The notes beneath the pieces are model-generated. The model was not told the DNA's origin. It did not search any database and saw only the letters and a list, made by a program, of their open reading frames with translations. From Alphaproteobacteria bacterium (GTDB lineage: Bacteria > Pseudomonadota > Alphaproteobacteria > UBA828), in assembly GCA_965214705.1 (NCBI GenBank), contig CBDCCI010000002.1, forward strand, positions 1,920,001 through 1,984,000: a stretch of DNA of 64,000 nt, in the 5' to 3' direction. The position numbers were made by a program, and so were the translations under genes. This document shows, piece after piece, positions 1 through 23,606 of the stretch (positions are counted from its first letter, which is position 1; each line of letters opens with the position of its first letter).

Positions 1-246
1 GCGCCGTTCGAGCCCGTGCAATCCGGCAACGGCTGGGACCGCAGCGCCCAGAAAGCCGTCGATCTGCCCGATGGGTCGGCCTGTTACGATCGCCACGGCG
101 CCGCCCAGCGCCTCGCGCAACGCGACCAACAGCGAAGGCAGGCAGTCCGGAACGTCGACGGCCTCCGGCGTCGGCGCGATATCGACGATGCAGCCGTCGA
201 AGTCGAGAAACAATGCCCAATCCAGGCACGGCTCGGGCAGAGTCAT
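1..246 (-). CDS. otsB: Trehalose-6-phosphate phosphatase, 5' part (runs off the window)
   Basis: Not in the ORF track. Manual translation from ATG 246 gives MTLPEPCLDWALFLDFDGCIVDIAPTPEAV...GGAVAIVTGR...AGLHGLERR, with HAD motif DxDG and OtsB-typical AxxTGR and GxHGxE motifs. Alternative GTG start at 255. Confidence 0.85.
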   Translation of the reverse strand, partial: MTLPEPCLDWALFLDFDGCIVDIAPTPEAVDVPDCLPSLLVALREALGGAVAIVTGRPIGQIDGFLGAAVPAVAGLHGLERR

Positions 247-386
247 GGAGCTCACGGTGTTGATAGGCGCCGAACTTTGCCCCCTCCAGAGTTTCGCTGT
301 CTCAATAGGTTACAGTGCCGATCAGCGTCAAATCCCCGCGCCAAACAACAGATTTCGAGAATGGGTAGGAACGCATGAATCCGGGG

Positions 387-436
387 ACTGGTGCCGCAGG
401 AGAGATTCGAACTCCCGACCCATGCATTACGAATGC
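387..436. repeat. att core copy (displaced 3' half of tRNA-Thr)
   Basis: ACTGGTGCCGCAGGAGAGATTCGAACTCCCGACCCATGCATTACGAATGC is identical to 12501-12550. It stops within the anticodon arm and lacks the tRNA 5' half. Confidence 0.97.
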
Positions 437-461
437 CGTGCGCCGCTATAGGTGGTAGCCA

Positions 462-474
462 TATCAAGCCCTTA
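462..474 (+). promoter_or_regulatory. IHF consensus site in the integrase-side att arm
   Basis: TATCAAGCCCTTA matches WATCAANNNNTTR exactly, 25 bp inside the att core. Confidence 0.65.
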
Positions 475-487
475 GCCCCCATATCAT

Positions 488-527
488 GCCGTTCGCGCAC
501 GTTCATTTCCGTTCATTGCCGTTGTTT
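488..527 (+). repeat. Four helically phased CGTT(C) direct repeats (candidate Xis/RDF sites)
   Basis: gccgttcgcg / cacgttcatt / tccgttcatt / gccgttgttt, with a 10-bp period. Confidence 0.5.
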
Positions 528-546
528 CTGGCAACTTGCCAGAAAC
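524..546. repeat. 23-bp perfect palindrome in the left att arm
   Basis: GTTTCTGGCAA-C-TTGCCAGAAAC. Its exact reverse complement lies at 12422-12444. Confidence 0.9.
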
Positions 547-552
547 CCCGCC

Positions 553-1581
553 TCAGCCCCGGCACCCGAGCGCTTCCACGGCGCTCCGCATGTGGTCGGG
601 GTGATGATGCCCATAGGTCGTCTCCAGCATGTCCATGGTCATGCCCAGGAAGCCGCACGCGGCCCATCGGTCGGCGCCCGCCTGCATCATCCACGTCGCA
701 CAGGTCCGCCGCAGGTCGTGCGGAGTGCAATGGTCGATGCCGGCCCCGCGGAGCGCGGTGCGCCATGCCGTCTTGAGGCTGCCCACGGGCTTGCCGTCGA
801 ACTCGACAACCCAGCGGGCGCCTATCCGCTGCCAGCGCCGCAGGTGAGCGAGCAAGCGCGGCGGCACTGGCACGGGCGGGGTCCGCTTGCGCGTCTCGGC
901 GGTGCCGGCCGCGCGGCGGTAGAGCACGCCTTTCTCGGTGTCCACCCATCCGCCCTGCATGTTCGGCATGAACTGGAGGCCCCGCAGCGCTTCGGAGCGC
1001 GTGCCGGTGTAGACGCCCACGAGGATGAAGCGGGCAAGGTGGCGCGCCTTGGGGTTGCGGCGGCACGCCCGGATCAACCGGGCGACCTCATCACGGGTCA
1101 GCCATCGGTCGCGCGGCGGTGCCTTGGGCGGCAGCGTCACTTGCACGTCGGTCACCAACAAGCCCTCGCGCTTGCACCAGTTGATCGCCGCATTCAGGTG
1201 GGCAAGCTCGCGCCGCGCCGTGTCGTTCGCGACGCCCCGATGGCGCACGTAGGCATCGCAGGTAGCGCGGTTGATGCTCGCCACCCTGGCCGGCCCGAAG
1301 TAGGGGCGCAGTGCCTTGATGCTGTAGCCGATCGTCTGCGGTGACTTCACGTTGACCGCATGGCCCTCGCCGTACAGGTCGAATACTTCGTCGTTGGTCA
1401 TGTCCTCCCCGGTGCGCGGCCCTACCGGCCGGCCCCGTTCGGCGATGTACCGTGCGAGCGCCTGGTCAGCTCGTCCTCGATCAGCGGTCCCGGTCGAGAA
1501 CCGCGTCTCGCCGTCGCGGATGTACCAGTTGCCCTTGTTGCCGTTCCGCCAGAGGCGGGCGCCTTTGCTTGGTCTCGGCAT
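553..1581 (-). CDS. int: Tyrosine recombinase (phage integrase)
   Basis: Catalytic motifs YTGTR, HDLRR and a C-terminal YGHH tyrosine; N-terminal arm-binding-like segment; ends about 120 bp from the att core. Confidence 0.95.
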   Translation of the reverse strand: MPRPSKGARLWRNGNKGNWYIRDGETRFSTGTADRGRADQALARYIAERGRPVGPRTGEDMTNDEVFDLYGEGHAVNVKSPQTIGYSIKALRPYFGPARVASINRATCDAYVRHRGVANDTARRELAHLNAAINWCKREGLLVTDVQVTLPPKAPPRDRWLTRDEVARLIRACRRNPKARHLARFILVGVYTGTRSEALRGLQFMPNMQGGWVDTEKGVLYRRAAGTAETRKRTPPVPVPPRLLAHLRRWQRIGARWVVEFDGKPVGSLKTAWRTALRGAGIDHCTPHDLRRTCATWMMQAGADRWAACGFLGMTMDMLETTYGHHHPDHMRSAVEALGCRG

Positions 1582-1736
1582 TTCTCCACGAGCTCCCCCA
1601 GTTGGGCCGCGTCCAGTAGCGGCTTGCGTCCGATCCTCACGATGTAGCCGTGCTGCTCTGCAACCGCGCGGAGCGCCTTGCGGGCCACGCCTAGGCGGTC
1701 GGCCGCTTCGGCGACGGTGAGAAGTTCAGGAATCAT
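1422..1736 (-). CDS. Excisionase-like HTH protein overlapping the integrase start
   Basis: LLTVAEAADRLGV is a MerR/Xis-type HTH start; overlaps int by 160 nt. Confidence 0.7.
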   Translation of the reverse strand: MIPELLTVAEAADRLGVARKALRAVAEQHGYIVRIGRKPLLDAAQLGELVEKCRDQAKAPASGGTATRATGTSATARRGSRPGPLIEDELTRRSHGTSPNGAGR

Positions 1737-1797
1737 TGACCCGCCGCGCGTAGCGCTTCAGCTCGGATTGGGTGACCGGCGCCTTCGGGCTGGGCAT
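1726..1797 (-). CDS. 23-aa micro-ORF or gene remnant (MPSPKAPVTQSELKRYARRVNDS)
   Basis: ATG sits 1 nt after the upstream stop codon; its own stop overlaps the xis start region. Confidence 0.35.
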   Translation of the reverse strand: MPSPKAPVTQSELKRYARRVNDS

Positions 1798-1798
1798 G

Positions 1799-2119
1799 CT
1801 AGTCGTCAACGTCTTTGTGGATGCCCCGAAGCGCAGCGGCCATAAGCGGAGAGGGGATGTAAACGTCTCTTGACCGCCCAGTGTCCGCGTCGGGGACGGT
1901 TCTTATATCGCCGCGCAGCACAGACACCGATGCTGGCTCCGTGCTACCAATGGAACGTGCGGCGATCTCGAGAGCCAAGCGGATGGTACCTACGTCGGTC
2001 AGGCGCCTCCCCCCGGTCGGAGGGTACTGCACCTCGATCATGCTGCGCACGACCGAAAGCATGTGTGCTGTGTCTTCGTTGACCCGAACAGTCCTATTGA
2101 ATTTCCGATCAGCCGCCAT
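1799..2119 (-). CDS. Small putative DNA-binding regulator (ribbon-helix-helix-like N-terminus)
   Basis: ATG 2119 with GGAGGG RBS. RTVRVNEDTAHMLSVVRSMI has a beta-strand-then-helix pattern; the fold call is inference. Confidence 0.5.
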   Translation of the reverse strand: MAADRKFNRTVRVNEDTAHMLSVVRSMIEVQYPPTGGRRLTDVGTIRLALEIAARSIGSTEPASVSVLRGDIRTVPDADTGRSRDVYIPSPLMAAALRGIHKDVDD

Positions 2120-2146
2120 GTCTTCCCTCCGCCAGATTACCCATTC

Positions 2147-2176
2147 GGTATACCATATGGCGCTCGTTATGGTCAA
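2147..2176 (-). promoter_or_regulatory. Candidate sigma70 promoter for the regulator-xis-int operon
   Basis: Minus strand TTGACC-18 nt-TATACC with an extended TG. Overlaps palindromes GGTATACC (2147-2154) and CCATATGG (2153-2160). Confidence 0.45.
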
Positions 2177-2373
2177 CACAAATTTTCACGTTTCATCGGC
2201 TCGCGAAAATCGGGCGACTTGGTAGTGGCCTACGACGGAGTGTACGGCGACGACCTCCCAGGGCGACCTCCCACGACGGACTAATCTCCCCTGGAAGAGG
2301 AATTCAGTGCACTGAGGGGCGCTGCTCGACCGGCTGGCGCGTCATCAACTTCTAGAAGAAGGAGATCAGCATC

Positions 2374-2568
2374 ATGCACTTGGAGCGGGACGAACGAGAC
2401 GCCATCGACATCCTTACCGATGCCATGCGAGATGACAGGCTCGGAAAGGCGGATCAGATCGCCGCCGCCGCCGGCCTACTGCAATTCTCGGCGACGGCCG
2501 CCGTCCAGGACCAGCTTGAGCGCATCGCCGACCACCTCACCGACAAGCCGGCGCCAAAAGTTCCGTAG
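2374..2568 (+). CDS. Hypothetical protein (64 aa), the only plus-strand gene of the element
   Basis: AGAAGGAG RBS upstream; helical composition. Confidence 0.6.
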   Translation: MHLERDERDAIDILTDAMRDDRLGKADQIAAAAGLLQFSATAAVQDQLERIADHLTDKPAPKVP

Positions 2569-2672
2569 AGCGCTCAGGACGCGCGCAAGCCCTCCAGGGT
2601 CGAGAGGTACGGACGGAATGCCGTTCGTCAGGTGCTGCCTGCGGAGCGCTCAGCACGGCGCCGAATTCGGGC

Positions 2673-2987
2673 TTACTGTACCGTCGCCGGCTGCCAACAA
2701 TCCGCGTCCGCCACCATCTGCCCGTCGGACACGAACACAAAGCGGCCGTCGTCCTGCAGCTCGGCTTCGACGGCCCGGTTGAATACCGCCGACAGCACGA
2801 CAGCCGTTTGCTGAGCCTGTAGGGCTGCCAGCATCGCGTCGTTGACCACGACGGCGCCCGTCTCGACACAGTGCGCGTGCGAGAGAACAGCCCACCGCAC
2901 GGCGCCCGCGTCGTCCGCGTCCGGGGCCTCGTTCGCCTTCATCACCTCCAGGATGATATCGAGCGCGCGCCTGAATTCTGCATCCAT
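2673..2987 (-). CDS. Hypothetical protein
   Basis: Starts 9 nt after the upstream stop; globular-looking composition. Confidence 0.6.
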   Translation of the reverse strand: MDAEFRRALDIILEVMKANEAPDADDAGAVRWAVLSHAHCVETGAVVVNDAMLAALQAQQTAVVLSAVFNRAVEAELQDDGRFVFVSDGQMVADADCWQPATVQ

Positions 2988-2996
2988 GATTCGCCC

Positions 2997-3233
2997 CTAT
3001 TCCATCGTCGACGAAGCCCGGCCAAAGCAACCCGCGCAAAGCATTCGCCGCCGCGCGGTTGGTTGAAAGCTGCGTCCGCACAACGCGCACGGGCGCTCAG
3101 GTCGCGCTGCATCCGGTAGGTCGGTCCTATGGTGCTGCGTCTTGTCCGTCTCTGGATTGAAGCCCGAATCCTGTCGCAAATCCTCGCCGACGGCGAGTTG
3201 CTTCCCGTTCCGGTAGAGCGGCCAGCCCATCAT
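2997..3233 (-). CDS. Small zinc-ribbon protein (CxxC...CxxC)
   Basis: CALC-x13-CAGC; ATGA overlap with the upstream gene. Confidence 0.65.
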   Translation of the reverse strand: MMGWPLYRNGKQLAVGEDLRQDSGFNPETDKTQHHRTDLPDAARPERPCALCGRSFQPTARRRMLCAGCFGRASSTME

Positions 3234-3793
3234 CCGCCGCTCGCCAAAAGCGCGCGCACGGCGCTCGGCAACGATTCCGTGTCGAGAACATGGCGCCGCA
3301 GGTGCACATGAGAGATATCCGTCCCCACCGCTAAATCGGGATAGTAGACGATCAAGTGATTGTCGGAGTCCCGCCCAAGAAGCACCCGGCCAAAGCTGGT
3401 CGAGCCGGCAACGTAGAAGGAAGACTCGGTCACTGGCCCGGTGCCGGGGTCGATTGTCCGGTGTCGTATGAACGCACTGGGGATGTACTCCACCGTTCCG
3501 GCAACGCCGACCGAAAAAACCTCATCTTCCGGCAGCACCCACTCGGTCGCCCAGGTGGGTGCGCTATCGTCGCGCGGTTGCTCGGTCACCTCGAAGAATC
3601 CGAGATTTTCAGTAGTAAACAGCCTGCGGAGTTGCCAATCCGGCGTGCCGGCAACGTGCACGTGGGCAAAGAGCGTGTCCACTAGATCGCGAAGGAACGC
3701 CCTATGCCCAGCGGCGGTAATTTCGCCGTCGGAGTTGTCGCGGAATGTGGTGTTGATCGCAGTCCATAGCTCTAGTTGTGTTCTCTCAACCAT
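3230..3793 (-). CDS. Putative virion fibre / decoration protein
   Basis: N-terminal INTTFRDNSDGEITAAGHRAFLRDLVD resembles the N-termini of phage fibre proteins (my recognition); beta-rich C-terminus; located in the morphogenesis operon. Confidence 0.5.
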   Translation of the reverse strand: MVERTQLELWTAINTTFRDNSDGEITAAGHRAFLRDLVDTLFAHVHVAGTPDWQLRRLFTTENLGFFEVTEQPRDDSAPTWATEWVLPEDEVFSVGVAGTVEYIPSAFIRHRTIDPGTGPVTESSFYVAGSTSFGRVLLGRDSDNHLIVYYPDLAVGTDISHVHLRRHVLDTESLPSAVRALLASGG

Positions 3794-4220
3794 AGTCTGC
3801 GCTGTAAGCGGGAGAGTACGCGCGGCGTGGTGCAGGTTCCGGTGCAGGTTCCGGTGCAGGAGCCCTCACCGTGCCAGCGAGCGATAGTCGCACCTCCAGC
3901 AATCGGAGAAAATACTCGCCGTGCAGCGAGCTGTAGTCGGCCGGCCGGTCACTGTCCTCGATGATGGCCGAAAGGTGCGGGCGCAGCGCGTCGAGCGCGT
4001 CAACCGCAATCGCGTCGACGCCTTCCGCCGTCGGCGAGCGGCACTCCAAGGCGAAGGTCTGGGCCCGGCCGCGTCCGGGGTCGAGAGTTTCTTGCCAACC
4101 CGCATCGTCGCAGCGAATCAGTACCGCCGGCCCGCTCGCGTCTGCCGCGTTCTGGAATCGGGTGCGCGCGATCACGACGCCCGGCAACGCCGCTCCCAGG
4201 AGCTCGCCAACGTCAATCAT
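3786..4220 (-). CDS. Putative neck / tail-completion-like protein with Pro-rich C-terminal extension
   Basis: ATG 4220 overlaps the portal stop. About 115-aa alpha/beta core (PAVLIR...FALECRSPTAEGVDAIA) resembles gp17-type tail-completion proteins, followed by APAPEPAPEPAP and RAYSPAYSADYG. Confidence 0.5.
   Translation of the reverse strand: MIDVGELLGAALPGVVIARTRFQNAADASGPAVLIRCDDAGWQETLDPGRGRAQTFALECRSPTAEGVDAIAVDALDALRPHLSAIIEDSDRPADYSSLHGEYFLRLLEVRLSLAGTVRAPAPEPAPEPAPRRAYSPAYSADYG
3829..3860. repeat. 12-bp tandem repeat (GGTGCAGGTTCC x2.7) encoding a PEPA linker
   Basis: Directly visible at 3829-3860. Confidence 0.9.
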
Positions 4221-5301
4221 CGCCGAACGCCAGTCTGCGGGCTTCTGCTTCGCCCATTCCGTCATCGCCCTCGCGGAGCTTGCGGTAAGCCTCAGCGCGG
4301 CGCGCGATCGCGCGCGATTGCACGTCTTCGTCGATCGCCTTCGCGGGGGGAAACGAAACCATCGCGGCGGGGTCGAGCTTCCGCCGCAACTCGACCTCCA
4401 GAATCATTCCGAGCGGCACAATCGTTCCGTTCCAGAGTCGCCGCGCGGCTTCGCGCTGCCCGCTCCCGTCGCCTTGCTCGGCAAAGAGCGCAGCCGGGCA
4501 GCCGAAAGCATTGGCGATCTCGAGTCCGAGTTGCGAGCGGAGCGCAAGCGCGTGCTCGGTTGGCGACGGTCCGTAAGGCTGGCCGGCATACCGCGAGGCC
4601 GGCAATTGCTCTAGGCCGGACGCCTGCCCGGTCGCGATGCCCGTGATTCCGCCCCGCCTGATACTGTCCATGATCGGGTCGGTTTGGCCGGGCCCAGGCA
4701 CGGCCGGCCGCGCCTGCGGGAACAGGATACCGACGGGCAGGCGCGAATAGTCCTGCATTCGCCGCTCCAGGCGCGCGGCAACGTCCGCCGTGGCCCGGCT
4801 GCGCCGAAGCGGCGGCCGGCCCCGCCACCATTGGACCGGATCGGCGCCCGCGGAGACATGCAGGACCGCAGCATCAGGGAGATTGCGGCGGACGGTCGAT
4901 TGCGGACCGCTCAGGGTCAAGTAGTAGTGCCGCGTTTCTTGGCGGTAGTCGCCGCGTGGATCCCAGGTCGAAGCCGGCCGCAACATGACACTGGCGTTCA
5001 TGACCTCGATTGCGAACACCGCATCGCCCGTCAGCGCGAGCGCCCGCCCCGCGAGCGCCAGGCAATCGGCCGTGACCGCCCGGAGCGGCACGGAGTCGGC
5101 GGGCTCGATCACGGCGGACGCGAACGAGCGCGACCATATGCCGACGCAAGCCTCAGCGAGTGCAAGGTGCTCCGGGCGAAGCGAAAGCCCGCTCAGCTCG
5201 CGCTGCTCGGCTTCAACCTGCTCGCGCTCGAGCCGGGCTTCAGCTTCGCGGCGCTCGCCTTCGGCCGAAGCCCGGACAGCACGGCCAGTGAACGGCCACA
5301 T
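4213..5301 (-). CDS. Phage portal protein (HK97-like)
   Basis: EACVGIWSRSFASA and EIANAFGCPAALF correspond to the conserved ACVxxIxxxIA and EIAxxFGVP portal motifs. Confidence 0.85.
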   Translation of the reverse strand: MWPFTGRAVRASAEGERREAEARLEREQVEAEQRELSGLSLRPEHLALAEACVGIWSRSFASAVIEPADSVPLRAVTADCLALAGRALALTGDAVFAIEVMNASVMLRPASTWDPRGDYRQETRHYYLTLSGPQSTVRRNLPDAAVLHVSAGADPVQWWRGRPPLRRSRATADVAARLERRMQDYSRLPVGILFPQARPAVPGPGQTDPIMDSIRRGGITGIATGQASGLEQLPASRYAGQPYGPSPTEHALALRSQLGLEIANAFGCPAALFAEQGDGSGQREAARRLWNGTIVPLGMILEVELRRKLDPAAMVSFPPAKAIDEDVQSRAIARRAEAYRKLREGDDGMGEAEARRLAFGDD

Positions 5302-5310
5302 GGGCAGCCC

Positions 5311-6501
5311 TTACGCGGCGTGTTGAACCTGCACGCGGTCGAAGCCGTCGGCGCGCAGAATTTTGAACGCGCAGAACATGCGTGCGGTCAGCTTGATCTC
5401 GCCTTCGGCCGCGCGCGTCGTTTCGTCGAAGATGATTCGGACGCCCCGCCAGATCGGCGCAACGAAATCGCGCCGCATTCCGCGTCGCACGATCACGTCT
5501 TGCTGGTTCGCGGCCGGCGCCGGAATGTGGTCGGTAACGCGGACGCCCGAAGTGATTCGCCGCAGGGAGTCGATGGCCGAATCGTCGGCAGTGTTGGAGC
5601 GGTACTGCCCCGACATGTGGCTTATGGTCTGGGAGGCGATCAACAGCCGGATTCCGTCTTCGCCCATGACCCATCGCCCGTCGATCTGCCCGTAAACGAG
5701 TCGGGAGCGGTAGGTTGCGAACGTGTCGACGGCGGTCGCATCCGTCCGGGCATTCTCGCTGCCCAACAGCTCGTTCACGATTCGCTCATCGTGCTTTTCC
5801 ATGAGTCCGCTCGTGAGATTCGAGCGCAAATCCGGGTCGAGCATGTCGAATCGCAGGCTATCGGATTCCCGATAGCTGTAGCCGGCTTGAATCCGCCCCG
5901 GCTGCAGCAATTCGCTCGTGATCGTGCCGTCCGTCTCGGCAACAGCCGTCGAATCGGTCAGCCGGTCGGACACGGTGGGGCGCGTGGTCAAGATCGGCCA
6001 AACCGCGTCGCCGGCGGGCACGATGGGCGAGTCGACCATCAAGAACGCCCCTTCGCCCATCGTGAAAATCGGCATGACGGTGCGTTGCTCGCTGGTCTCC
6101 ACATTCGTCGGCACCGTGGTCGCGGCTGCCCGGAACATATCGACGGGCACCGCGTTGTGCGGCAGCTCGTAGTGCGCCTGCAACTCGGCAAGCGCGCCCT
6201 CTTGCGGCTGCTTCAGTCGCAGCCGCTCGACGAATTCGGCCAGCGAAGCCCCGGCCACAACGCCCGCCATTTCGGCGAATTCGCCGTCGCGCGTCGCTTG
6301 GTCGCCGACCATGCTTGCGTGCTGCTCCTGCTCGGCCATCGCCGCGGCCAACTTCCCGCCCATCGTCATCTGCTCGGCCACGAGCGAGTCGACTTCGGCC
6401 TTGATCTCCGATGTTTGCTCGGCCTTGGGTAGCGCCTTGATCTCCTCCAGCCGCTTTTCGATCGCGGCCGCGCGAAGCTGCAATTTCTGAACTTTCGTCA
6501 T
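5311..6501 (-). CDS. Major capsid protein, HK97 fold with N-terminal coiled-coil (delta-like) domain
   Basis: Helical N-terminus of about 120 aa, then VAET...ELLQPGRI...SESD..FD segments and a C-terminal GEIKLTARMFCAFKILRADGF typical of HK97-family capsids. Confidence 0.85.
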   Translation of the reverse strand: MTKVQKLQLRAAAIEKRLEEIKALPKAEQTSEIKAEVDSLVAEQMTMGGKLAAAMAEQEQHASMVGDQATRDGEFAEMAGVVAGASLAEFVERLRLKQPQEGALAELQAHYELPHNAVPVDMFRAAATTVPTNVETSEQRTVMPIFTMGEGAFLMVDSPIVPAGDAVWPILTTRPTVSDRLTDSTAVAETDGTITSELLQPGRIQAGYSYRESDSLRFDMLDPDLRSNLTSGLMEKHDERIVNELLGSENARTDATAVDTFATYRSRLVYGQIDGRWVMGEDGIRLLIASQTISHMSGQYRSNTADDSAIDSLRRITSGVRVTDHIPAPAANQQDVIVRRGMRRDFVAPIWRGVRIIFDETTRAAEGEIKLTARMFCAFKILRADGFDRVQVQHAA

Positions 6502-8126
6502 TCCAATTCCTCCAGTGGGATATGGGTCACGATGGGCGCGGCCGTGGCAGCCGGGCCCATCGCGCGGGTGCCGGCGCCGACGGCCAGCAGGGACGCTACC
6601 AGCGCGTCAATCCGCCCCCGCTTGCGCCGCTTTTCCAGCACGGGGTTGTCGTTCCGCTTTTCGATCTCGACCACGGACTCCTTGATCGCGGACTCGAGCA
6701 ACAGGCACCGGCCCGGCCGCAGCGCTTCGGTATAGGCAGCCCGCTGGAAGCTCCGAAGATCGCTCACGCCGTCCTTGCCGCTCCCGCGTCGGCGCCATTG
6801 CAGCGGCCACCAAAGCCCGAGCTTCGCCCATGCGTCGCGCACTTCGGCCTCTTTGAAGGTGTCGGCGGTCGCGGACATGACGCTTTCGCCCTCGAGCAAG
6901 CCCGAGAACCACTCCAGGAACTCGTAGACCGGGGTTGCGCGCCCCGGCCATGTCCGCAGCTCGCCGCGGTCCGCCATGCGCTCGTAGAGGGTCGCCACGC
7001 CGTCGGCTTCGCCCCTAGCGGCAAGGTCCGGCACGTCGCCGAAGGCGCCATAGCACTCCAGGCGCTGCGAGGCCGGCCAGAATCCGGCCGCACAGGTCAT
7101 GCTCGCCGATTGGCCGATGTCGATACCTACGAAGCACGCCCCGGCACGCGGCGGCCGGTCCTTGTCCGCGCACGCTATCCATACTTCGGGCGGCACGATG
7201 GGCTCAGTATTAGGCGAGCCGACGATATTGAGATCGAAGACTCGGAAGTCCGCCGCATCGTTCGGCGAGGCCGCAGCGCGCCGCGCCATGTCCGCCATGT
7301 AGGACCGTGACTTGACGGTATCGAGCGCGGGGTTTGCGGCTTCCCAAGCTCGCTCATCGTCGAGCGCGCAGTTTGCCGGCGCCGCGTGCACGTGCACGGC
7401 CACCGCCGGATCATCCTTGCGCTCGATCATCTCGGCACTGAGCGGAGAATCCCCAAGCACTGAGATCGCGATCAGCCGGCCGTTGCGCGCGCTCGTGCTC
7501 GACAACAGCCCGGCCACCAGGTCGCGCCCGCCCCTGACCGGGAAAAGGCCCAACTCATCGCAGATCGCGAGATCGAATCCGCTCGCATGGCCGGCCGTCC
7601 GGTCAGCCGACAAGAATTCTGCGCGGCCCCATGCTGAGTCGATCTTGCGCGGCACCTTCCCGAAGGTGAGGCCCCGCAGCGCGCCCGCCTCGGCAATCGC
7701 TTTGCATTGCTCCCAAAGCTCGCCGGCCTTGTCACGATTCACGCTCGCCACGCCGCACCGCCAGCCGCGCCGACGCAGCGGCCCATCGTCCGCGAGGTGC
7801 GCCAGAATCAGCACCGCGAGCACCGCCGACTTGGAATTCTTGCGTGCACAGAACAGCCCGGCTTCGCGAACGCCCGGCGCCAGTGCGTCGCGGAAGAAAT
7901 CGACCGCGAAGGCCGGCAGCGTCATCGGCTGGTCGGCATTCTCGTGACCGTGCGGCACGATCAGGCGCTTTTCGGCCCAGTCCGCCACCGCCTGCGCGGG
8001 GTCCATCGGGAGCGGCGGTAGAGGCTCGACGGGCTCAGGCGCTCGCTCGCAAGGCTCAGTCAGGCGCCGTCCGCCGTTCGCTTTGCGGCGCTCGCGATAG
8101 GTCCGCATGTAGGCAGCACGACTCAT
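6498..8126 (-). CDS. terL: Terminase large subunit
   Basis: Walker A-like ARKNSKS, Walker B AICDELG, WEAANPAL, nuclease GID and C-terminal KRRKRGRIDALVA. Confidence 0.92.
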   Translation of the reverse strand: MSRAAYMRTYRERRKANGGRRLTEPCERAPEPVEPLPPLPMDPAQAVADWAEKRLIVPHGHENADQPMTLPAFAVDFFRDALAPGVREAGLFCARKNSKSAVLAVLILAHLADDGPLRRRGWRCGVASVNRDKAGELWEQCKAIAEAGALRGLTFGKVPRKIDSAWGRAEFLSADRTAGHASGFDLAICDELGLFPVRGGRDLVAGLLSSTSARNGRLIAISVLGDSPLSAEMIERKDDPAVAVHVHAAPANCALDDERAWEAANPALDTVKSRSYMADMARRAAASPNDAADFRVFDLNIVGSPNTEPIVPPEVWIACADKDRPPRAGACFVGIDIGQSASMTCAAGFWPASQRLECYGAFGDVPDLAARGEADGVATLYERMADRGELRTWPGRATPVYEFLEWFSGLLEGESVMSATADTFKEAEVRDAWAKLGLWWPLQWRRRGSGKDGVSDLRSFQRAAYTEALRPGRCLLLESAIKESVVEIEKRNDNPVLEKRRKRGRIDALVASLLAVGAGTRAMGPAATAAPIVTHIPLEELE

Positions 8127-8189
8127 CGGCGGTAACAGTTTCGAGGCCGCCGGCGCTGTTGGTTGGCGGACGGTCTGGAGGCCGGCGCC

Positions 8190-8951
8190 CTATAACCGCC
8201 GGGGCCCCACCGGGTTGTTGTGCACCGCACCATTCCCTTTCGCATGCGCAGCATTTCTGCTCCAGCGTGGCGGCCTGTCAAGCGCCCGCGTCTGCGGCGT
8301 GGCGTATTGGCTGGGATACTGGAGCCGGATGACCTGGGCGAAGGGGTCATGCGCTCGGCACATGTCATCGCGCGCTCTGTCCCGCGCGCACACCCACTCC
8401 CATGTGACCATGCAGTCCGGGGCTGGGTGGTTGACCACGGCGAGCAGCCGGTAAAGCTCCCTCAGCTGGGCTCGATTGACGCCCACGCCCTCGGGATGTT
8501 CGCGGCATAGCTTGCGTAGTTCGGCGATCGTCGGCCAGAACTTCTCTGAGCGGCGCCATTGTTGGGTCACGTCAACCAACACATGCTCGGGATATTCTTG
8601 CAGGTCTTCGAGATAGCACTCCATTGCGATGTCCATGTCGTCTCGTTCCGGGATGATGACGCATGCGGCGAGCCTGCGCAGGATCACCGCCGTGGCCTCG
8701 GGGCCGGCCGCCCGAAGATCGAACTCGACGCCCTCGATCCTGTCGAGCAGCTCCTCCACTTGCTCTTCGCACAGGTCCGGCGGGAGCAGGTCCCTCTTCT
8801 CACGCCATGTGTGTTGACGGTGCACGACGGCCAACGGCAGCTCATAGTCGCCGTCGATCAACTGCTTTAGCGAGGCCTTCCGCCAAGGCGCGCTCTCTAT
8901 CGCCCTGCGTCGTTCGTCTTCCTTCTGCCGGCGGATCAGCTCCAGATCTTC
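8190..8951 (-). pseudogene. Putative replicative helicase loader/inhibitor, 3' part (5' end at 11704-11747 cut off by IS66)
   Basis: YLEDLQEYP...WRRSEKFWPTIAELR motif typical of phage loader proteins found downstream of initiators. Removing the IS restores a 265-aa ORF starting MRERGGYELLTDEDLELIRRQ. Confidence 0.65.
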
Positions 8952-9031
8952 GTAAGCGGTACGCAGACCCCATACCGGAATCTGGCTTGACTACGACGGG
9001 GATTTCTTGAGGAGCGCCGTGAGCGCGCGAG

Positions 9032-10747
9032 TCATTTTGCCTCGGGCTGGAAGTTCCACGGCAGAAGCTCCTGGATGCCCGACTGCGGGTGGCCCTTGGC
9101 GATCTTCTCGAGCGTGCTCCGCATCCAGGCGTAGGGCTCGACGCCGTTCATCTTGCAGGTCTCGATCAGCGAGGCGATGCGGGCCCAGGCTTGCGCACCC
9201 TCGTCGTTGCCGGCGAAGAGCGCGTTCTTGGCGGTGAGCTTCAGCGGCCGGATTCGGTTTTCCACCAGGTTCGAGTCGATCTCGACACGACCGTCGTGCA
9301 GGAACTCCAGCAGCCCGTCCCACTGGTTGGCGATATAGGTCAGCTTCTCGCCGAGACGCGAGCGCGGTGAGACGCGCGAGCGCTGCTCGTCGAGCCAGAC
9401 ACCGAAGGTGTTCACGATCGGCGCCGACTCCTCCCAACGGATCGCGCGGCGCTCCGCCGGCGGCTTGCCCCGGATCTTCTTCTCGATCGCATAGAGCTTC
9501 GCGATCCGATTCAGACCGGCCAGCGCGATCGGCGATGCGCTCGAGTCGTATACCTCTTTCAGCTTCCGTCTTACATGCGCCCAACAGAGGGCCCGCGTCA
9601 CAGGGCCTTCCGCCCGGTCCGGCCGCGCCAGGATGTTGTGGCCCGAGTAGCCGTCGAGCTGCACCGTCCCCGAAAAGCCCTCCATAAGCTCGGCGCCATA
9701 CTTGCCGCCGCGGCCGGGCGCATAGCGATAGACGACGCCCGGCGGGTCCGTGCCGCTCCAGTGGCGCTCGTCACGCACAAGGGTCCACATGTAGCCCGTC
9801 TTCGTCTTGCCCCGGCCCGGGTCGAGAACGCGGATCGTGGTCTCGTCCAGACCCAGGTGATCCGACTTCTTCAGCTCATCCTCCAGGCAAGCGACCACGG
9901 GGCGCAGGTGAAACGACGCCTGGCCCACCCACGTCGCCAGCGTCGCACGGTGAACCTCGATCCCCGAGCGCTCGTAGATCTGCGACTGGCGATAGAGCGG
10001 GCAATGATCGCCGTACTTCGCGATCAGCACCTGCGCCAGAAGAGCCTCGGTGGGAAGGCCGCCCTCGACCAGAGCGGCCGGCGCCGGCGACTGCACCACC
10101 CCGCCCCCCTTGCACTTGTTGCAGGCGTAGCGGGGGCGCACGGTCTCGATGACGGTGAACTTCGCCGGCTCATAGTCCAGCCGCTCGCTGCGGTCCTCGC
10201 CGATCTTCGTCATCTCGCCGCAGCCGCAGGGGCACATGATCGTGTCCGGCTCGATCACCTCCTCGCGCCGGTCGACCTGGGGCCCGAAGCGCACCCCGCT
10301 GCGCGACCCCCGGGAAGAGCGCCGCCGGCGCTTGCCGCCAGCCCCCTCGTCCTGCTCCTGGTCATCTGCCTCGGGCCGACCGCCGGCTTCAGCGATCGCC
10401 GCCCAAAACTCCTCGAACGTAAGCTGGCGCTCGTCCTCGCCGAGCTTCTCGGAGCGCGGACCGAACAGCGCCTTCCTGAGCTCCTTGTTGAGATGCTCAA
10501 GCCGGCTGATCTGCTCCGCGCTCTGCGCGTTCTCGGCCTCCAGCCGTGCCGCCCGCGCTTCCGCCGTCTGCCTCGCCGCCTCCGCCGCGCCGCGTGCCTG
10601 CTCCGCTTCGCATAGGGCTGCTTCCGTCGCCCGGCGCGCCGCGCGCTCGTCGTCAAGCTCCGCATGCAGGGCCGCCAGCGCCGCCGAAACCACCGCAGGC
10701 GACGGCGAACCGGCGCTGCTGAGGGGTGAGGGCGTGACCTTCGGCAT
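9032..10747 (-). CDS. tnpC: IS66 transposase TnpC
   Basis: LFGPRSEK, zinc finger CPCGC...C..C, DET, CWAHVRRK, IDSNLVEN and ETCKMNGVEP motifs; start uncertain (10747 or 10774). Confidence 0.95.
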   Translation of the reverse strand: MPKVTPSPLSSAGSPSPAVVSAALAALHAELDDERAARRATEAALCEAEQARGAAEAARQTAEARAARLEAENAQSAEQISRLEHLNKELRKALFGPRSEKLGEDERQLTFEEFWAAIAEAGGRPEADDQEQDEGAGGKRRRRSSRGSRSGVRFGPQVDRREEVIEPDTIMCPCGCGEMTKIGEDRSERLDYEPAKFTVIETVRPRYACNKCKGGGVVQSPAPAALVEGGLPTEALLAQVLIAKYGDHCPLYRQSQIYERSGIEVHRATLATWVGQASFHLRPVVACLEDELKKSDHLGLDETTIRVLDPGRGKTKTGYMWTLVRDERHWSGTDPPGVVYRYAPGRGGKYGAELMEGFSGTVQLDGYSGHNILARPDRAEGPVTRALCWAHVRRKLKEVYDSSASPIALAGLNRIAKLYAIEKKIRGKPPAERRAIRWEESAPIVNTFGVWLDEQRSRVSPRSRLGEKLTYIANQWDGLLEFLHDGRVEIDSNLVENRIRPLKLTAKNALFAGNDEGAQAWARIASLIETCKMNGVEPYAWMRSTLEKIAKGHPQSGIQELLPWNFQPEAK

Positions 10748-10840
10748 GGGCCACCCCTTAATCCGATTCGCCAATGCATGACCAGGGAAAAGTGCAGGCG
10801 GGACCGCGACCGAAATCTGCGGCCCCGCCTGCGTGCCGCC

Positions 10841-11191
10841 TCACTCCGCCGCCAGCGGGCGGCGAACCGGGCGGGCCTTCACCCGGCGCCAGTCCAGACC
10901 CTCGAAGAGGGCCTCGAACTGGCCCTTCGTAAGGCGCATCACACCATCCTCGATCCGAGGCCAGGCGAAGCGGCCCTGCTCCAGACGCTTGTAGGTCATC
11001 ACCAGACCGCTGCCGTCCCACGCAAGGAGCTTGAGCCTGTCGCCGCGGCGCGAGCGGAAGATCACGATCACCCCGGAATAGATATCGAGGTCCAGCTCCC
11101 CCGCCGCCGTCGCCGCAAGCGCGTCGTGGCCGCGACGAAAATCAACCGGCCGCGTCGCCAACACGATGCGAAGCGAGGGGGCCGCGATCAT
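10841..11191 (-). CDS. tnpB: IS66 accessory protein TnpB
   Basis: PVDFRRG, FRSRRGDRLKLLAWDGSG and KRLEQGRF motifs. Confidence 0.95.
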   Translation of the reverse strand: MIAAPSLRIVLATRPVDFRRGHDALAATAAGELDLDIYSGVIVIFRSRRGDRLKLLAWDGSGLVMTYKRLEQGRFAWPRIEDGVMRLTKGQFEALFEGLDWRRVKARPVRRPLAAE

Positions 11192-11643
11192 GACGACGCC
11201 CGGCCCAGGCCCGAGGCCACCGCAACAATCCGATCGACCGCGCTCTCCACCGGAAGGCGAACGACCACGCCTAGCGCCTCGATCGCCACCGTCCGCTCGG
11301 ACGTCACGCTATCAACCACCACGGGAACAAATGGCGGTGCAGAGCCACCAATCCGAGCGCCCGGAAGAGTTCCCTCCCGCGCGCGCCGCCGCCACTTGGT
11401 CAGGGTCGTATCGCTGACGCCATGGCGGCGCGCGACCGCCGCAACCGAAGAGCCCGGCTCAAAGCTCTCCGAGACAATCCGCGCCTTCTCATCGTCCGGC
11501 CAGCGTCGCATGGGGGCCGGCTCAGACGGAGCCGGGGCGGCTCCCTCAGAAGCTGGGATCTCAACCGAAGCAACAGCGACACCGTCGCCAGATGCCAAAA
11601 TCGAATCTGTCATCGCGATCTCTCCTGTGTGGCTCGTGGTCAA
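11188..11643 (-). CDS. tnpA: IS66 TnpA HTH protein
   Basis: RRWPDDEKARIVSES...SVAAVARRHGV...WRR HTH; the true start may be slightly downstream. Confidence 0.9.
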   Translation of the reverse strand: MTTSHTGEIAMTDSILASGDGVAVASVEIPASEGAAPAPSEPAPMRRWPDDEKARIVSESFEPGSSVAAVARRHGVSDTTLTKWRRRAREGTLPGARIGGSAPPFVPVVVDSVTSERTVAIEALGVVVRLPVESAVDRIVAVASGLGRASS

Positions 11644-11664
11644 GGCGGAGAGTCAGCCCCGAAA

Positions 11665-12405
11665 TCAGATCCGCTGGAAGTATGGGGGCCCGATACCGCT
11701 TACAGATCTTCGTCCGTCAGAAGCTCGTAGCCCCCTCGTTCCCTCATTAGCCCGGCGCACGTCTTCTCTGATCCAGTTGCGCCAGATCGCATTCCAATCA
11801 GCGGCAGCTCGTCCGGTACCAAGGTAGTGATCCGTGAAGCGGTCGACTGCCTGGCTGATCTGGGCATCGCTCAATCCCTGGTTCTTCGCGAACAAGAGTC
11901 CCTTCTCTGACGGCAACCAATTGGCGGCCATGCGGGAGGTGGCGCGCTTGCGCGCGCCCCCGGTTCCCTGACGGTTCTTTGACGGTTCCTGATGGTTCGG
12001 TGGGCAACTTGCCCGCTGTTTCGGGCAACTTGCCCGCTGTTCTGTGACAGGTTGCCCGGTGTCGTGGGCAAGTTGCCCGGTGTCGTGCGCCGCCTCACCG
12101 GGCAGATTGTCCGGTGTCGAGGCTTCGTCCTCCCCCCCCAACTGCAGGTGGTATTCGTGACCTCGACCGCGCTTGGTCTTGAGGATCAGGCCACGAGACT
12201 CGAGGTGGTCCAGGGCCCGCCGCACTGTGCGCTCGTCGAGCTCGGTGTCGTCTGCAATCCGCCTTACCGAGGGGTAGCTGTGGCCACGGTCGTCGGCATG
12301 ATCGGCCAGCTTGAGAAGCACCAATTTCGCCGACGGCGCGGACACGCTTTTTTCTGCGTTCCCGACGCGCTGGCCAAAGGCCCAGGCCATCGCGCGAACA
12401 CTCAC
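11665..12405 (-). CDS. Phage-type replication initiator (N-terminal winged HTH, C-terminal DnaT-like region); native C-terminal tail displaced by IS66
   Basis: GTG start gives MSVRAMAWAF...KLVLLKLADHADDRGHSYPSVRRIA..ERTVRRAL..L...GLI and C-terminal DWNAIWRNWIR. It now ends with 12 IS-derived residues; the native tail is at 8842-8943. Confidence 0.85.
   Translation of the reverse strand: MSVRAMAWAFGQRVGNAEKSVSAPSAKLVLLKLADHADDRGHSYPSVRRIADDTELDERTVRRALDHLESRGLILKTKRGRGHEYHLQLGGEDEASTPDNLPGEAAHDTGQLAHDTGQPVTEQRASCPKQRASCPPNHQEPSKNRQGTGGARKRATSRMAANWLPSEKGLLFAKNQGLSDAQISQAVDRFTDHYLGTGRAAADWNAIWRNWIREDVRRANEGTRGLRASDGRRSVSGIGPPYFQRI
12002..12112. repeat. Intragenic iterons / putative replication origin
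   Basis: GGGCAACTTGCCC at 12002 and 12023, degenerate copy at 12045, GGGCAAGTTGCCC at 12066, degenerate copy at 12100. The first four have a 21-22 bp period, inside rep as in lambda O. Confidence 0.8.
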
Positions 12406-12410
12406 GGAAC
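12396..12410. promoter_or_regulatory. Candidate alphaproteobacterial LexA (SOS) box over the rep start codon
   Basis: GAAC-ACTCACG-GAAC = GAAC-N7-GAAC. Confidence 0.5.
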
Positions 12411-12421
12411 GAATCCGGGGG

Positions 12422-12444
12422 GTTTCTGGCAAGTTGCCAGAAAC
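12422..12444. repeat. 23-bp perfect palindrome in the right att arm
   Basis: GTTTCTGGCAA-G-TTGCCAGAAAC, the reverse complement of 524-546. Confidence 0.9.
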
Positions 12445-12475
12445 TCCCGGTCCTCGCGGCGGGCGGGCGGTTCTC

Positions 12476-12488
12476 TAAGTGATTGATT
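12476..12488 (-). promoter_or_regulatory. IHF consensus site in the tRNA-side att arm
   Basis: Minus strand AATCAATCACTTA matches WATCAANNNNTTR, 12 bp from the att core. Confidence 0.65.
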
Positions 12489-12502
12489 TATAAGGGGAGA
12501 AC

Positions 12503-12578
12503 TGGTGCCGCAGGAGAGATTCGAACTCCCGACCCATGCATTACGAATGCATTGCTCTACCGACTGAGCTACTGCGGC
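12503..12578 (-). tRNA. tRNA-Thr(CGT), integration target
   Basis: Acceptor stem GCCGCAG/CTGCGGC, anticodon arm ATGCA-TT CGT AA-TGCAT, TTCGAAT loop, encoded CCA; 76 nt. Confidence 0.97.
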
Positions 12579-12663
12579 CCGGTTCCGCGCCGGACTATCG
12601 TCAAGGCACGCTGCATTGTAAAGGCGCCAATCGCGGGCTGGCCCTGGCTTCCCGCAAGAACGG

Positions 12664-14043
12664 TCACTCGGCGGCGGTGCCTGCGGCCGCCGGTACCGGC
12701 TGCTCTTCGTCGTCGGCAGAGGCAGCGGTATCTGGCGGCAAGGCGCTTGCCTCGACGCGGGACGGTGTGCGCCACTCGATCGCATCGAAGGCACCGCAGC
12801 GATCGCAGACGATCGACCACGCCGGGCTCGCGCTGGCGCAGCGGGTGCAGAGCCAGGCCGGATCGGGCGGCGCCTCGCTCGCCTGCTGGAGGCGCCGCCG
12901 GACCGCGTCGCCGTCCCCCGTCTCGGCCTCCTCCAGACGTGCCAGCAGGCGGTAGGCGCCAGCGCTGGGGCACTCAACCGCGGCGCGCTCCAGATGCCGA
13001 CGCGCCGTCCCCCACTGCTTCGCGTCGAGCGCCTGGTTCGCGAGCAGCATGAGGCTCTCGGCGTGGTCGCTGTTGTTGGCCACCAGCGTCTCGACCCGCT
13101 TCAGCCGCTCTGCGGCCGAACTGTCGGCGTGGAGCGCGAGAAAGAGCCGGCCGAGCGCCGGGTGAGGACAATGACGCCAGGCATCGATCACCGCCCGCTG
13201 CGCAGCACTGTCTCGGCCGGCTTCCTTGGCGAGTCCGGCGCCCAGCAGCGCTGCGGGCAGGAACGCAGCATCTGCCGCGCGCGCCTCGTCGGCGACGCGC
13301 AGCGCCTCCCTCACCTCGCCCTGCTCGCGCAACGCCCGCGCCCGCTCGAAGAGCAATCCCGCCTGGCGTCGGCGACCGATCTCCTCGCTCACGGCGCCGT
13401 GGCGCAGGGCCTGCTTGACCGTTCCGACCGCATCCGACCAGCGCCCAGCCCGCGTTTGCATCTCCAGCAGCGCGGTCAGCACCCAGGGCGTCTCGGGCCG
13501 GAGCGCGAAAGCCTGCTCCGCAAGCTCCAGCGCCCGCGCCGTATCGCCGGTGCGCTCGGCCTGAACGAGCAAGCCGCGCAATCCGAGGAACGCCGTCGCC
13601 GGCTGGTCGAGCATGGCCTCGAAATAACCGCGCGCGGCGTGGTCGTCGCCCTCAAGCTGCGCCGCCTGGGCCGAGAGCAGGAGCGTCAGCGGGGGCTCCT
13701 CCAGCAGCGCATCGGCGCGACGCGCGAAGCGGCGGGCGCGCTTTGGGTCGCCCGCCGCCGCCGCGACCAGCCCCTGGGTCAGCGCCCGGTAGCCCAGACG
13801 CTCGCGGCGACGGCGGCGCGCCAATGCGACCCGGCGCGGGCCGATCCAGACGAAGCGCACCACGGCAGCGATCACCAGGACGATGGCCGCAGCCACGGCG
13901 AGGGCCGCAGCCAGGGTCCCCGGCGAGGTCTCGACCATGTAGTCGCCCCAAGCGATCTCGACACGGCCGGGCGGCTCCGAGATCCAGCTCGCGGCCGCCG
14001 CAACGACGATCACCGCAACGACGAAGGCGATGATGCGGATCAT
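12664..14043 (-). CDS. hemY: Heme biosynthesis-associated HemY-family TPR membrane protein
   Basis: Two N-terminal TM segments, HemY_N (PGRVEIAW...), TPR-like helices, C-terminal CxxC...CxxC; last gene of the hemC-hemD cluster. Confidence 0.88.
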   Translation of the reverse strand: MIRIIAFVVAVIVVAAAASWISEPPGRVEIAWGDYMVETSPGTLAAALAVAAAIVLVIAAVVRFVWIGPRRVALARRRRRERLGYRALTQGLVAAAAGDPKRARRFARRADALLEEPPLTLLLSAQAAQLEGDDHAARGYFEAMLDQPATAFLGLRGLLVQAERTGDTARALELAEQAFALRPETPWVLTALLEMQTRAGRWSDAVGTVKQALRHGAVSEEIGRRRQAGLLFERARALREQGEVREALRVADEARAADAAFLPAALLGAGLAKEAGRDSAAQRAVIDAWRHCPHPALGRLFLALHADSSAAERLKRVETLVANNSDHAESLMLLANQALDAKQWGTARRHLERAAVECPSAGAYRLLARLEEAETGDGDAVRRRLQQASEAPPDPAWLCTRCASASPAWSIVCDRCGAFDAIEWRTPSRVEASALPPDTAASADDEEQPVPAAAGTAAE

Positions 14044-23423: not shown

Positions 23424-23510
23424 GCGGCTGTGGCGGAACTGGTAGACGCGCAGCGTTGAGGGCGCTGTGGGGGCGACCCCGTGGAGGTTCGAGTCCTCTC
23501 AGCCGCACCA
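23424..23510 (+). tRNA. tRNA-Leu(GAG)
   Basis: Anticodon arm CAGCG-TT GAG GG-CGCTG, long variable arm, CCA; 87 nt. Confidence 0.96.
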
Positions 23511-23519
23511 TCTGACCTG

Positions 23520-23606
<87 letters not shown>

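Follow-up and report, generated by a model that had tools for sequence, protein, structure and literature searches.

The stretch of DNA analysed here, called the window throughout (64,000 nucleotides (nt), positions 1,920,001 to 1,984,000 of contig CBDCCI010000002.1 from an alphaproteobacterial genome assembly), carries between its positions 387 and 12550 an element with phage-type head and packaging genes and no recognisable tail. Our preferred reading, to which we give a probability of roughly 70 %, is that this is an integrated, tail-less, capsid-encoding element of the satellite type, belonging to a recurrent family of 9–10.6 kb elements in which it forms a derived branch with the metagenomic contig L051, and that the copy in the window was recently hit by an IS66-family insertion sequence (IS). 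Going by gene content and by the precedent of those phage-inducible chromosomal islands that form capsids (cf-PICIs), such elements would depend on a helper phage and form particles, and the family most likely borrows its tails from that helper.

A direct repeat at 387–441 and 12501–12555, identical over its first 50 nt, is the only one within bases 1–16000 to exceed 30 nt, and ARAGORN places a tRNA-Thr(cgt) gene at 12503–12578 on the minus strand. The repeat is therefore the 3′ end of the tRNA, as expected for site-specific integration. The attR copy (12501..12550; feature 12501..12578, minus strand) lies inside the intact tRNA-Thr(CGT) gene, and attL (387..436; strand not applicable) is the duplicated 3′ part, which adjoins the integrase gene and matches 12501–12550 at 50/50 nt. 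The repeat-to-repeat span is 12,114 bp, which becomes 9,354 bp once 2,760 bp (the IS66-family insertion plus one copy of its target duplication) are subtracted; a preliminary description of this DNA had arrived at the same figure and at two intact, identical att copies, and the repeat search bears it out. The element is ~93 % coding, the surrounding DNA has roughly 66 % GC, and the element's genes display the GC3>GC1>GC2 pattern of real genes.

The head and packaging module comprises three genes on the minus strand, which also carries the rest of the main gene string. The large terminase (TerL, 542 amino acids (aa), 6498..8126) matches phrog_9 (E value 1.9e-48) and the TerL_nuclease family PF20441 (1.6e-6, above cut-off). 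In a TerL alignment (A3), neither its ATPase-like nor its acidic nuclease-like positions vary, and on our own reading of that alignment they may be named as the respective motifs; the TerL of the window and L051 sub-group also has a conserved basic N-terminal arm. The major capsid protein (MCP, 5311..6501) itself has no Pfam or PHROG match. Its 115 homologues are at most 57 % identical, the closest at 51–57 % (P0002–P0009), and PF05065 is matched by 6 of the 44 that were aligned. An AlphaFold model (AF2, alignment of 44 sequences, pLDDT 85) returned 381 PDB matches in Foldseek at E≤0.001, with probability 1.00 to HK97-fold shells, including T5, siphophage capsids and encapsulins (target-normalised TM: HK97 Head I, 0.65; siphophage R4C, 0.67; RcGTA, 0.66 (6tb9)), and the HK97 fold is confirmed at the level of this model. 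The first ~110 residues are modelled as helices that, as we read them, resemble the HK97 delta (scaffolding) domain, which a protease removes in HK97-type heads. The 362-aa portal (4213..5301) scores 36.4 bits with PF04860 (4.4e-9), below the cut-off of 39.1, and shares 46 % identity with the portals found in L051 and in a further relative, L043, which pass or approach that cut-off.

The genes are closely packed. The terL and MCP genes overlap by 4 nt, a 9-nt gap separates the MCP gene from the portal gene, and the portal gene overlaps the gene for a 159-aa protein by 53 nt, or by 8 nt if a second ATG is used. Further overlaps of 8 nt (159-aa/187-aa) and 4 nt (187-aa/78-aa) are followed by a 9-nt gap (78-aa/104-aa), and gene 2 stands 63 nt from terL. 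The nearly gap-free single-strand string of the preliminary description is recognisable in these junctions, but is broken by a 64-aa plus-strand ORF (2374–2568). Searches of the element with Pfam, PHROGs and NCBIfam turned up no family of tail, holin or lysin proteins, as that description had also held, and the six unassigned small ORFs sum to ~700 aa and are therefore too little for a tail. Its labels 'loader', 'neck-like' and 'fibre-like' for gene 2 and for the 159-aa and 187-aa products, none of which has a family match, are supported by no tool.

The element has relatives of similar size and layout. A profile of its MCP matched 15 of the 49 genomes of the same order and 13 of the 20 of the same genus, and at E≤1e-40 it matched 4 genomes among the 401 sampled from the class and 2 of 8 in a second family; related contigs are labelled Alphaproteobacteria. 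We annotated 16 related loci (ORF calling by codon-position GC, then Pfam and PHROGs). Their integration and replication genes encode an Arm-DNA-bind_3 integrase, an HTH_17 (AlpA-like) helix-turn-helix (HTH) protein and either an HTH_36 initiator or an AAA_25/Prim-Pol/Replicase protein. Onward follow TerL, an HNH protein of ~95 aa, the MCP, an S78 prohead protease, an Ad1-like adaptor or a phrog_939/Hc1-like protein, and the portal. Some relatives add a second HNH or a Mu Gp37-like protein, the latter counting with the Ad1 adaptor and the Hc1-like or phrog_939 protein as the relatives' neck proteins. No tail family was detected in any of the 16 loci.

In 13 of the 20 tRNA rows tested, the tRNA end is repeated at the element's far side, nine of these repeats being 32–55 nt long. 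The nine elements so delimited, the window's included, occupy tRNA-Thr, Lys, Pro and Cys genes, and in six the repeat-to-repeat distance is 9,444–10,584 bp (L025, tRNA-Lys, 9,444 bp; L049, tRNA-Lys, 9,667 bp; L046, tRNA-Cys, 10,021 bp; L043, tRNA-Lys, 10,437 bp; L030, tRNA-Pro, 10,452 bp; L040, tRNA-Thr, 10,584 bp). Each of the other three, which are longer, contains an insertion: the window element (tRNA-Thr, 12,114 bp, IS66), L033 in the same genome ~190 kb away (tRNA-Pro, 12,127 bp, a transposase gene) and L031 (tRNA-Pro, 13,037 bp, integrase split by the insertion). Identical ends of 43–99 nt, the signature of a circular assembly, were found in five of the eight contigs tested (9,051, 9,490, 9,520, 9,762 and 9,849 bp); these five encode replicase, TerL, HNH, MCP, protease and portal, mostly lack an integrase and have no tail family. 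Among the circular relatives of 9.0–9.8 kb, L060, L062 and L063 (IMG/VR) and L052 (a contig of a metagenome-assembled genome) carry the family core without an integrase and have Replicase, Prim-Pol or AAA_25 genes instead, and episomal or purely virion-borne members therefore exist in the family. The label of L052 is Gammaproteobacteria, and its record gives an assembly coverage of 1463.

The preliminary description would have been contradicted by homologues confined to 35–50 kb tailed prophages and by a layout that does not recur; the relatives found are 9.4–10.6 kb att-flanked elements and 9.0–9.8 kb circular assemblies. It erred in marking the family by a lack of protease, HNH and primase-type replicase, as most relatives carry HNH and S78 and several carry AAA_25/Prim-Pol genes.

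The family lies far from catalogued phages. With tblastn at E≤1e-3, the MCP matched none of 50,697 phage records; TerL matched eight of these records (27–29 % identity), the best being the 60-kb Rhizobium phage 16-3. Four unverified 'Ralstonia phage' records of 12.9–18.7 kb (ON170149.1, ON170171.1, ON170322.1 and ON170310.1) encode a TerL 28–29 % identical to that of the window, and at their size they could be satellites rather than phages. In IMG/VR, TerL relatives were present in 34 of 126 pattern-matched stretches. The four with at least 35 % identity (35–48 %) are all on contigs of 9.05–9.76 kb, and the remaining 30 (24–32 %) are on contigs of 4–48 kb. The TerL alignment also found relatives in 7 of 366 pattern-matched stretches of the genome collection, where one MCP alignment (A1) was too diverse for search patterns and another (A2) gave no relative. 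Further IMG/VR scans yielded no relative with the single MCP, two with A2 and none with a portal alignment (A4), and a metagenome scan with A2 gave three loci, one of which duplicates an IMG/VR contig.

The insertion in the window element occupies 8952–11703 (8944..11711 with its two 8-bp target-site copies, minus strand). It has imperfect terminal inverted repeats (8952–8975 and 11680–11703), an 8-bp target duplication, AGATCTTC, at 8944–8951 and 11704–11711, and three ORFs with TnpA, TnpB and TnpC domains, matching HTH_Tnp_1 (TnpA), TnpB_IS66 and DDE_Tnp_IS66 (1e-96). The IS cuts off the last 33 codons of the replication initiator gene, rep, together with the first ~12 codons and the upstream signals of gene 2; a single insertion damages both genes, and it is not inert cargo. 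The initiator (11704..12432, minus strand) combines a winged HTH with a DnaT-like domain (HTH_36, 4.8e-17; DnaT, 3.2e-7; phrog_1032, 9.5e-32) and is an O-like replication initiator, not a primase. With its native 3′ end cut by the IS it reads as 255 aa with an IS-derived tail, vs 276 aa in the IS-free reading. Gene 2 (8190..8943, minus strand) has a frame that is open to the IS boundary and continues beyond it in the computed IS-free join, its first ~12 codons lying near 11712–11747. Among the 50 matches of the IS listed in the genome, 27 full-length copies, the window's included, are identical over 2,752 bp; since the window's copy does not differ from 26 others, its insertion was recent. As the IS breaks rep and gene 2 and brings the length to 12.1 kb, the window copy can probably neither replicate nor be packaged, and is probably immobile. 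This IS66-family element is massively expanded in the genome, and the depth of assembled contigs over it is ~50-fold that of its flanks.

Apart from the IS, the window element differs from most relatives in what its head module lacks. It has no Pfam or PHROG match to a prohead protease or to HNH; a local S78 hidden Markov model (HMM) had no hit either among the called ORFs or in six frames (best E 1.6), the best six-frame E value of a local HNH model being 0.052. These two models, built from the relatives' proteins, recognised 21 ORFs each across the loci, none of them in the window element or in L051. L051 is a 7.3-kb metagenomic contig on which int and small ORFs are followed by TerL (59 % identity), MCP (48 %) and portal (46 %), with the same 4-nt terL/MCP overlap and 9-nt MCP/portal gap as in the window. 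No small terminase (TerS) family was matched in the window element or in any annotated relative, nor is there a conserved small ORF upstream of TerL, an unrecognised TerS being possible. A maximum-likelihood tree of the MCP, with 25 rows (omitting L027, L044, L047 (= L049), L059, L062 and L063, where the capsid gene is absent, partial or split by contig ends), joins the window element and L051 in a clade (100/97) within a clade that holds the protease-bearing L049 and L028. Because the pair nests among protease-bearing relatives, the loss of HNH and protease is derived. It also predates the split of the pair; the MCP branches from that split measure 0.36 and 0.79 changes per site, over which the three core ORFs remained intact, and this argues for a working reduced design and not a single deletion accident. 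The claim of a streamlined, even smaller capsid-forming family stands as far as a recurrent tail-less family of 9–10.6 kb goes, but the minimal gene set belongs to a derived sub-lineage only. Likewise, the terL–capsid–portal order that had been thought distinctive recurs in L051 down to the exact junctions, but capsid-to-portal order is also described for proteobacterial cf-PICIs. The delta-domain MCP of this sub-lineage may be processed by the helper's protease.

The same losses could be taken as degeneration, with the IS as one more step in the decay of a dead satellite that makes no particles. We consider this unlikely, although it accounts for an MCP that keeps its ~110-aa helical delta-like domain, normally removed by a protease, and for the disruption of rep and gene 2; insertions are moreover present in three of the nine well-bounded integrated copies. 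Protease decay does occur in the family. L048 (MCP 35 % identity) has a 51-aa protease remnant between MCP and portal (L048:5440–5595; local HMM, 5e-14) and an HNH upstream of TerL, and, as far as its sequence can be read, this is protease loss under way in another branch. However, the TerL, MCP and portal genes of the window are intact and tightly abutted, their 4-nt and 9-nt junctions have been kept in L051 at 46–59 % identity across the branch lengths given above, no remnant of protease or HNH is left in six frames, and the disruption by the IS, identical to 26 other copies, is recent.

Still less probable is a self-sufficient, helper-independent entity, either a mini-virus lacking a tail or a plasmid-like element that would be packaged in heads by its own genes and leave or enter cells with no borrowed tail. 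Several circular relatives of 9–9.8 kb have their own replicases and no integrase, one of them at coverage 1463, no resident helper is evident in the genome of the window, and similar questions have been posed for HK97-fold genomes below 11.6 kb in the available text of a 2026 paper (PMC13669383). Yet the relatives encode adaptor and closure-type head–tail proteins, which are sensible only with an attached tail, and no lysis or entry function was found. To our knowledge, every bacterial virus known to bear a portal and TerL is tailed.

A deletion remnant of an ordinary tailed prophage, which phage-type head and packaging genes, in a genome whose many IS elements could promote deletions, might bring to mind, is already largely refuted by the intact att sites, by a size of 9.4–10.6 kb kept across tRNA sites and genomes alongside circular forms of 9–9.8 kb, and by the absence of close homologues among the phage records and of tail genes in the annotated relatives.

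Several observations weigh against the satellite reading that we prefer. No helper, induction, excision or particle was observed. PF05065 and the tail markers PhageMin_Tail, TMP_2 and Phage_sheath_1 have no match in the genome of the window (7.9 Mb, three contigs), where a lambda-like tail/head remnant is the only such cluster found. No attP, attB or IS-free joint is among the joints listed in the assembled contigs of four sequencing runs; as these contigs break at the multi-copy IS, they permit no statement on excision. The family matches of the portal and of the excisionase-like protein score under the curated cut-offs, no neck protein was verified in the window element, where the 159-aa and 187-aa proteins are orphans, and its accessory genes, except for a zinc ribbon, have no homologue in any fetched relative. 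A delta-like MCP with no protease, HNH or TerS may mean that the element alone makes no mature heads, and the copy in the window may be dead through its IS.

Capsid-forming satellites were described in 2022–23, mainly from Gammaproteobacteria and Firmicutes. In the available text of the reports (10.1101/2022.09.08.507074; PMC10085698), cf-PICIs are elements of ~15 kb (median 14 kb, 19 proteins; prototype EcCIEDL933, 15.4 kb) that arose at least three times and carry int, alpA, rep, MCP, protease, portal, head–tail connector, HNH, TerS and TerL genes; those of proteobacteria have the order capsid–protease–portal–connectors, then hnh–terS–terL (10.1101/2022.09.08.507074). The cfPICI model of SatelliteFinder, as its text gives it, has 11 core components and requires at least nine (PMC10085698). 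The window element carries an integrase, its own MCP, a portal and TerL; tail and holin genes were not found in it, and protease, HNH and TerS were not recognised; its regulator is represented by weak HTH_17, phrog_66 and TIGR01764 scores, its replication gene encodes an initiator, not a primase, and its candidate adaptor is the 159-aa protein, by a lead from the Atlas language model. Because this comes to ~6–7 of the 11 components, we file it as a variant of the capsid-forming satellites and not as a cf-PICI member, and current satellite detectors, with 9 of 11 components required, would miss the reduced form.

The family resembles the cf-PICIs in being small and integrated and in having int, an AlpA-type HTH protein, a replication module and its own HK97-type MCP, portal and TerL, to which most members add HNH, a prohead serine protease and head–tail adaptors; tail and lysis genes are missing from it, and its similarity to phage proteins is only distant. 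Its MCP–protease–portal order is that of proteobacterial cf-PICIs, a comparison made by description from the available text. The family differs, however, in size (9.0–10.6 kb vs a median of 14 kb in that text), in having no recognised TerS, so that its usual set is the cf-PICI genes minus TerS, and in placing TerL–HNH before the capsid genes, in contrast to the hnh–terS–terL that follows them in the cf-PICIs of the same text. It also has episomal members and alphaproteobacterial hosts, and the window element, with no HNH or protease, uses an O-like initiator. The word Alphaproteobacteria does not occur in the available text of the two reports (10.1101/2022.09.08.507074; PMC10085698), hits in the supplementary tables of SatelliteFinder being possible, and in a paper that full-text search found to name both cf-PICIs and Alphaproteobacteria, the latter appear only in a reference title.

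Other known systems are less close. As described in the available text of PMC10690885, the Streptomyces satellites MulchRoom and MiniFlayer likewise have their own capsid and packaging genes, no homology to canonical satellites and helper-dependent tails; compared by that description, they differ in having Actinomycetota hosts, virulent helpers, genomes with direct terminal repeats (DTR) and no obvious replicase. With P4 and the HK97-fold genomes of the 'twilight zone', under 11.6 kb, as given in the available text of PMC13669383, the element shares an integrative nature and a length that does not exceed the smallest known tailed-phage genomes. P4, however, uses its helper's capsid protein. 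The dominant encapsulin-enriched mini-genomes have neither terminase nor portal gene in that text (PMC13669383), whereas the family has both. Gene transfer agents (GTAs) of the RcGTA type share the alphaproteobacterial host and a small HK97-fold head (RcGTA capsid 6tb9, TM 0.66 to the window's MCP), but encode tails, package host DNA and have no integrase, att sites or replication module; moreover, the genome of the window has no PF05065 match and no PF04860 match other than the element's own.

Such an alphaproteobacterial family of 9–10.6 kb would extend the host range of capsid-forming satellites and, with the smallest tailed-phage genomes put at 11.6 kb in the available text of PMC13669383, would lower the smallest size known for elements that assemble portal-bearing heads of their own and fill them. 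Its members would be natural experiments on the dispensable parts of a head module, with and without protease and HNH, with no recognisable TerS, and in integrating and episomal forms. Tentatively, and with rather more doubt than belief, we go further and propose that the window element and L051 are capsid-forming satellites whose head and packaging module has been cut to three abutting genes (TerL, delta-domain MCP and portal), which have shed HNH, protease and any TerS, and which borrow maturation and packaging cofactors, tails and lysis from a helper. At 9.35 kb, the element would then be the smallest self-encapsidating, portal-bearing dsDNA element, and the wider 9–10.6 kb family, integrated and episomal, with its TerL–HNH–MCP–protease–portal order, would represent a further, alphaproteobacterial origin independent of the three described.

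Under the preferred satellite reading, the cycle could run as follows. A helper phage or a stress signal would lift repression at a divergent control region (2180–2373), whereupon recombination between the 50-bp att cores, carried out by Int and an HTH excisionase, would set free a circle of 9.35 kb. The O-like initiator would bind iterons in its own gene and, with gene 2, recruit host replication proteins. MCP, its N-terminal delta domain serving as internal scaffold, and portal would build small procapsids, and TerL would fill these with one genome unit of ~9–10 kb. The helper would provide tail and lysis and, for the sub-lineage of the window element and L051, probably also the prohead protease, an HNH cofactor and any small terminase.

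The candidate origin at 12052..12119 (strand not applicable) consists of three 13-nt iterons, TTGYCCGGTGTCG, inside rep. The iteron has four matches in the 64 kb vs 0.24 expected, and none of 100 shuffles reached four. The fourth exact copy is at 3454–3466 within the gene for the 187-aa protein, 8.6 kb from the other three.

At the attL end, a 342-aa tyrosine integrase (553..1581, minus strand; PF00589, 1.2e-11; phrog_1, 1e-52) has no Arm-DNA-bind_3 domain and is 60 % identical to the integrase of L033. The start of int is overlapped by a 104-aa ORF (1422..1736, minus strand) for a putative excisionase or AlpA-like HTH protein, with weak matches to HTH_17 (0.0019, below cut-off), phrog_66 (4e-4) and TIGR01764 (2.8e-4) and with 54–59 % identity to ORFs in the same position in L031 and L033. 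Next comes a candidate small regulator (1799..2179, minus strand), which probably starts at the ATG at 2119 after GGAGGG, giving 106 aa; both this start and a possible ribbon-helix-helix look come from a reading of the letters. The intergenic region between the divergent genes (2180..2373, strand not applicable) is a candidate control region on the same kind of reading, and GC dips there, falling to 0.59 in the bin 2001–2500. A scan of promoters and terminators gave 1 promoter-like site vs 1.2 expected. The 64-aa ORF on the plus strand (2374..2568) has a strong AAGGAG ribosome-binding site and a GC content by codon position of 0.74/0.40/0.78.

The remaining small genes are on the minus strand. 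A 104-aa acidic protein (2673..2987) has a coding-type GC pattern and no matches. The 78-aa protein (2997..3233) ends in a C-terminal CxxC...CxxC zinc ribbon and has no HNH domain. It is 67–70 % identical over 27–33 aa to zinc-ribbon segments in L031 and L041, the one in L031 being directly upstream of a called ORF with HNH matches, whose start it overlaps. The 187-aa protein (3230..3793) found itself only in a word search of 5.8 billion proteins, and a full HMMER search of 1.84 billion representatives gave three marginal matches, which had sub-threshold Pfam matches to unrelated families only. Its N-terminal 50 aa are 48 % identical to one unannotated 334-aa protein, and its best Atlas score was 0.88, with just 0.81 for a fibre family. 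The 159-aa protein (3786..4265) likewise found only itself in the word index. Atlas placed it at 0.89–0.91 to clusters carrying tail-terminator or tail-completion families, which we treat as a lead only; its single-sequence AF2 model (pLDDT 42) was unusable, and its comparison with two proteins of the resident lambda-like remnant, the tail terminator and Phage_tail_S, revealed no similarity. Pfam, PHROGs, NCBIfam and PADLOC gave no family match for gene 2 or for the 159-, 187-, 104- (acidic), 64- and 106-aa products, and neither the MCP profile nor gene 2, the 159-aa protein or the portal had a meaningful match in PDB sequence searches.

The second family member in the genome of the window, L033, occupies 2,115,467–2,127,670 of contig 3 (L033:5068–17271) in a tRNA-Pro(cgg) gene, with a 45-nt att repeat. 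It encodes TerL, HNH, MCP, S78 protease, portal and integrase, a DDE_Tnp_1_4 transposase gene is inserted, and no rep was recognised inside it. It holds the sole S78 match of the genome, where the window's own genes account for all PF04860 and PF20441 matches. Just outside it, at L033:2411–4980, is a 771-aa ORF with a DruA-like (Druantia) region and transposase domains, beside which lies an 81-aa HTH_36 fragment 51–55 % identical to the N-terminus of the window's rep. The two may be debris of a third element.

The lambda-like cluster was reached through a Phage-tail_3 match and spans ~2,804,300–2,819,100 of contig 3 (L094/L095), ~880 kb from the element. It encodes a collar fibre, a GpJ-like protein of 1,225 aa, DUF1833, a short tape measure (Tape_meas_lam_C), a tail terminator, Phage_tail_S, a Phage_cap_E MCP and a cement protein, and ends at an IS66-family transposase gene. 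With no portal or terminase seen in it, it could be a defective prophage.

Contigs from two runs of different studies (X5 and X8) join positions 3197 and 12452 of the window with 13 other letters between, a joint whose source may be a related, differently arranged element. Beyond the element, the window carries tandem tRNA-Leu genes (gag and cag), 9 nt apart, at 23424–23606.

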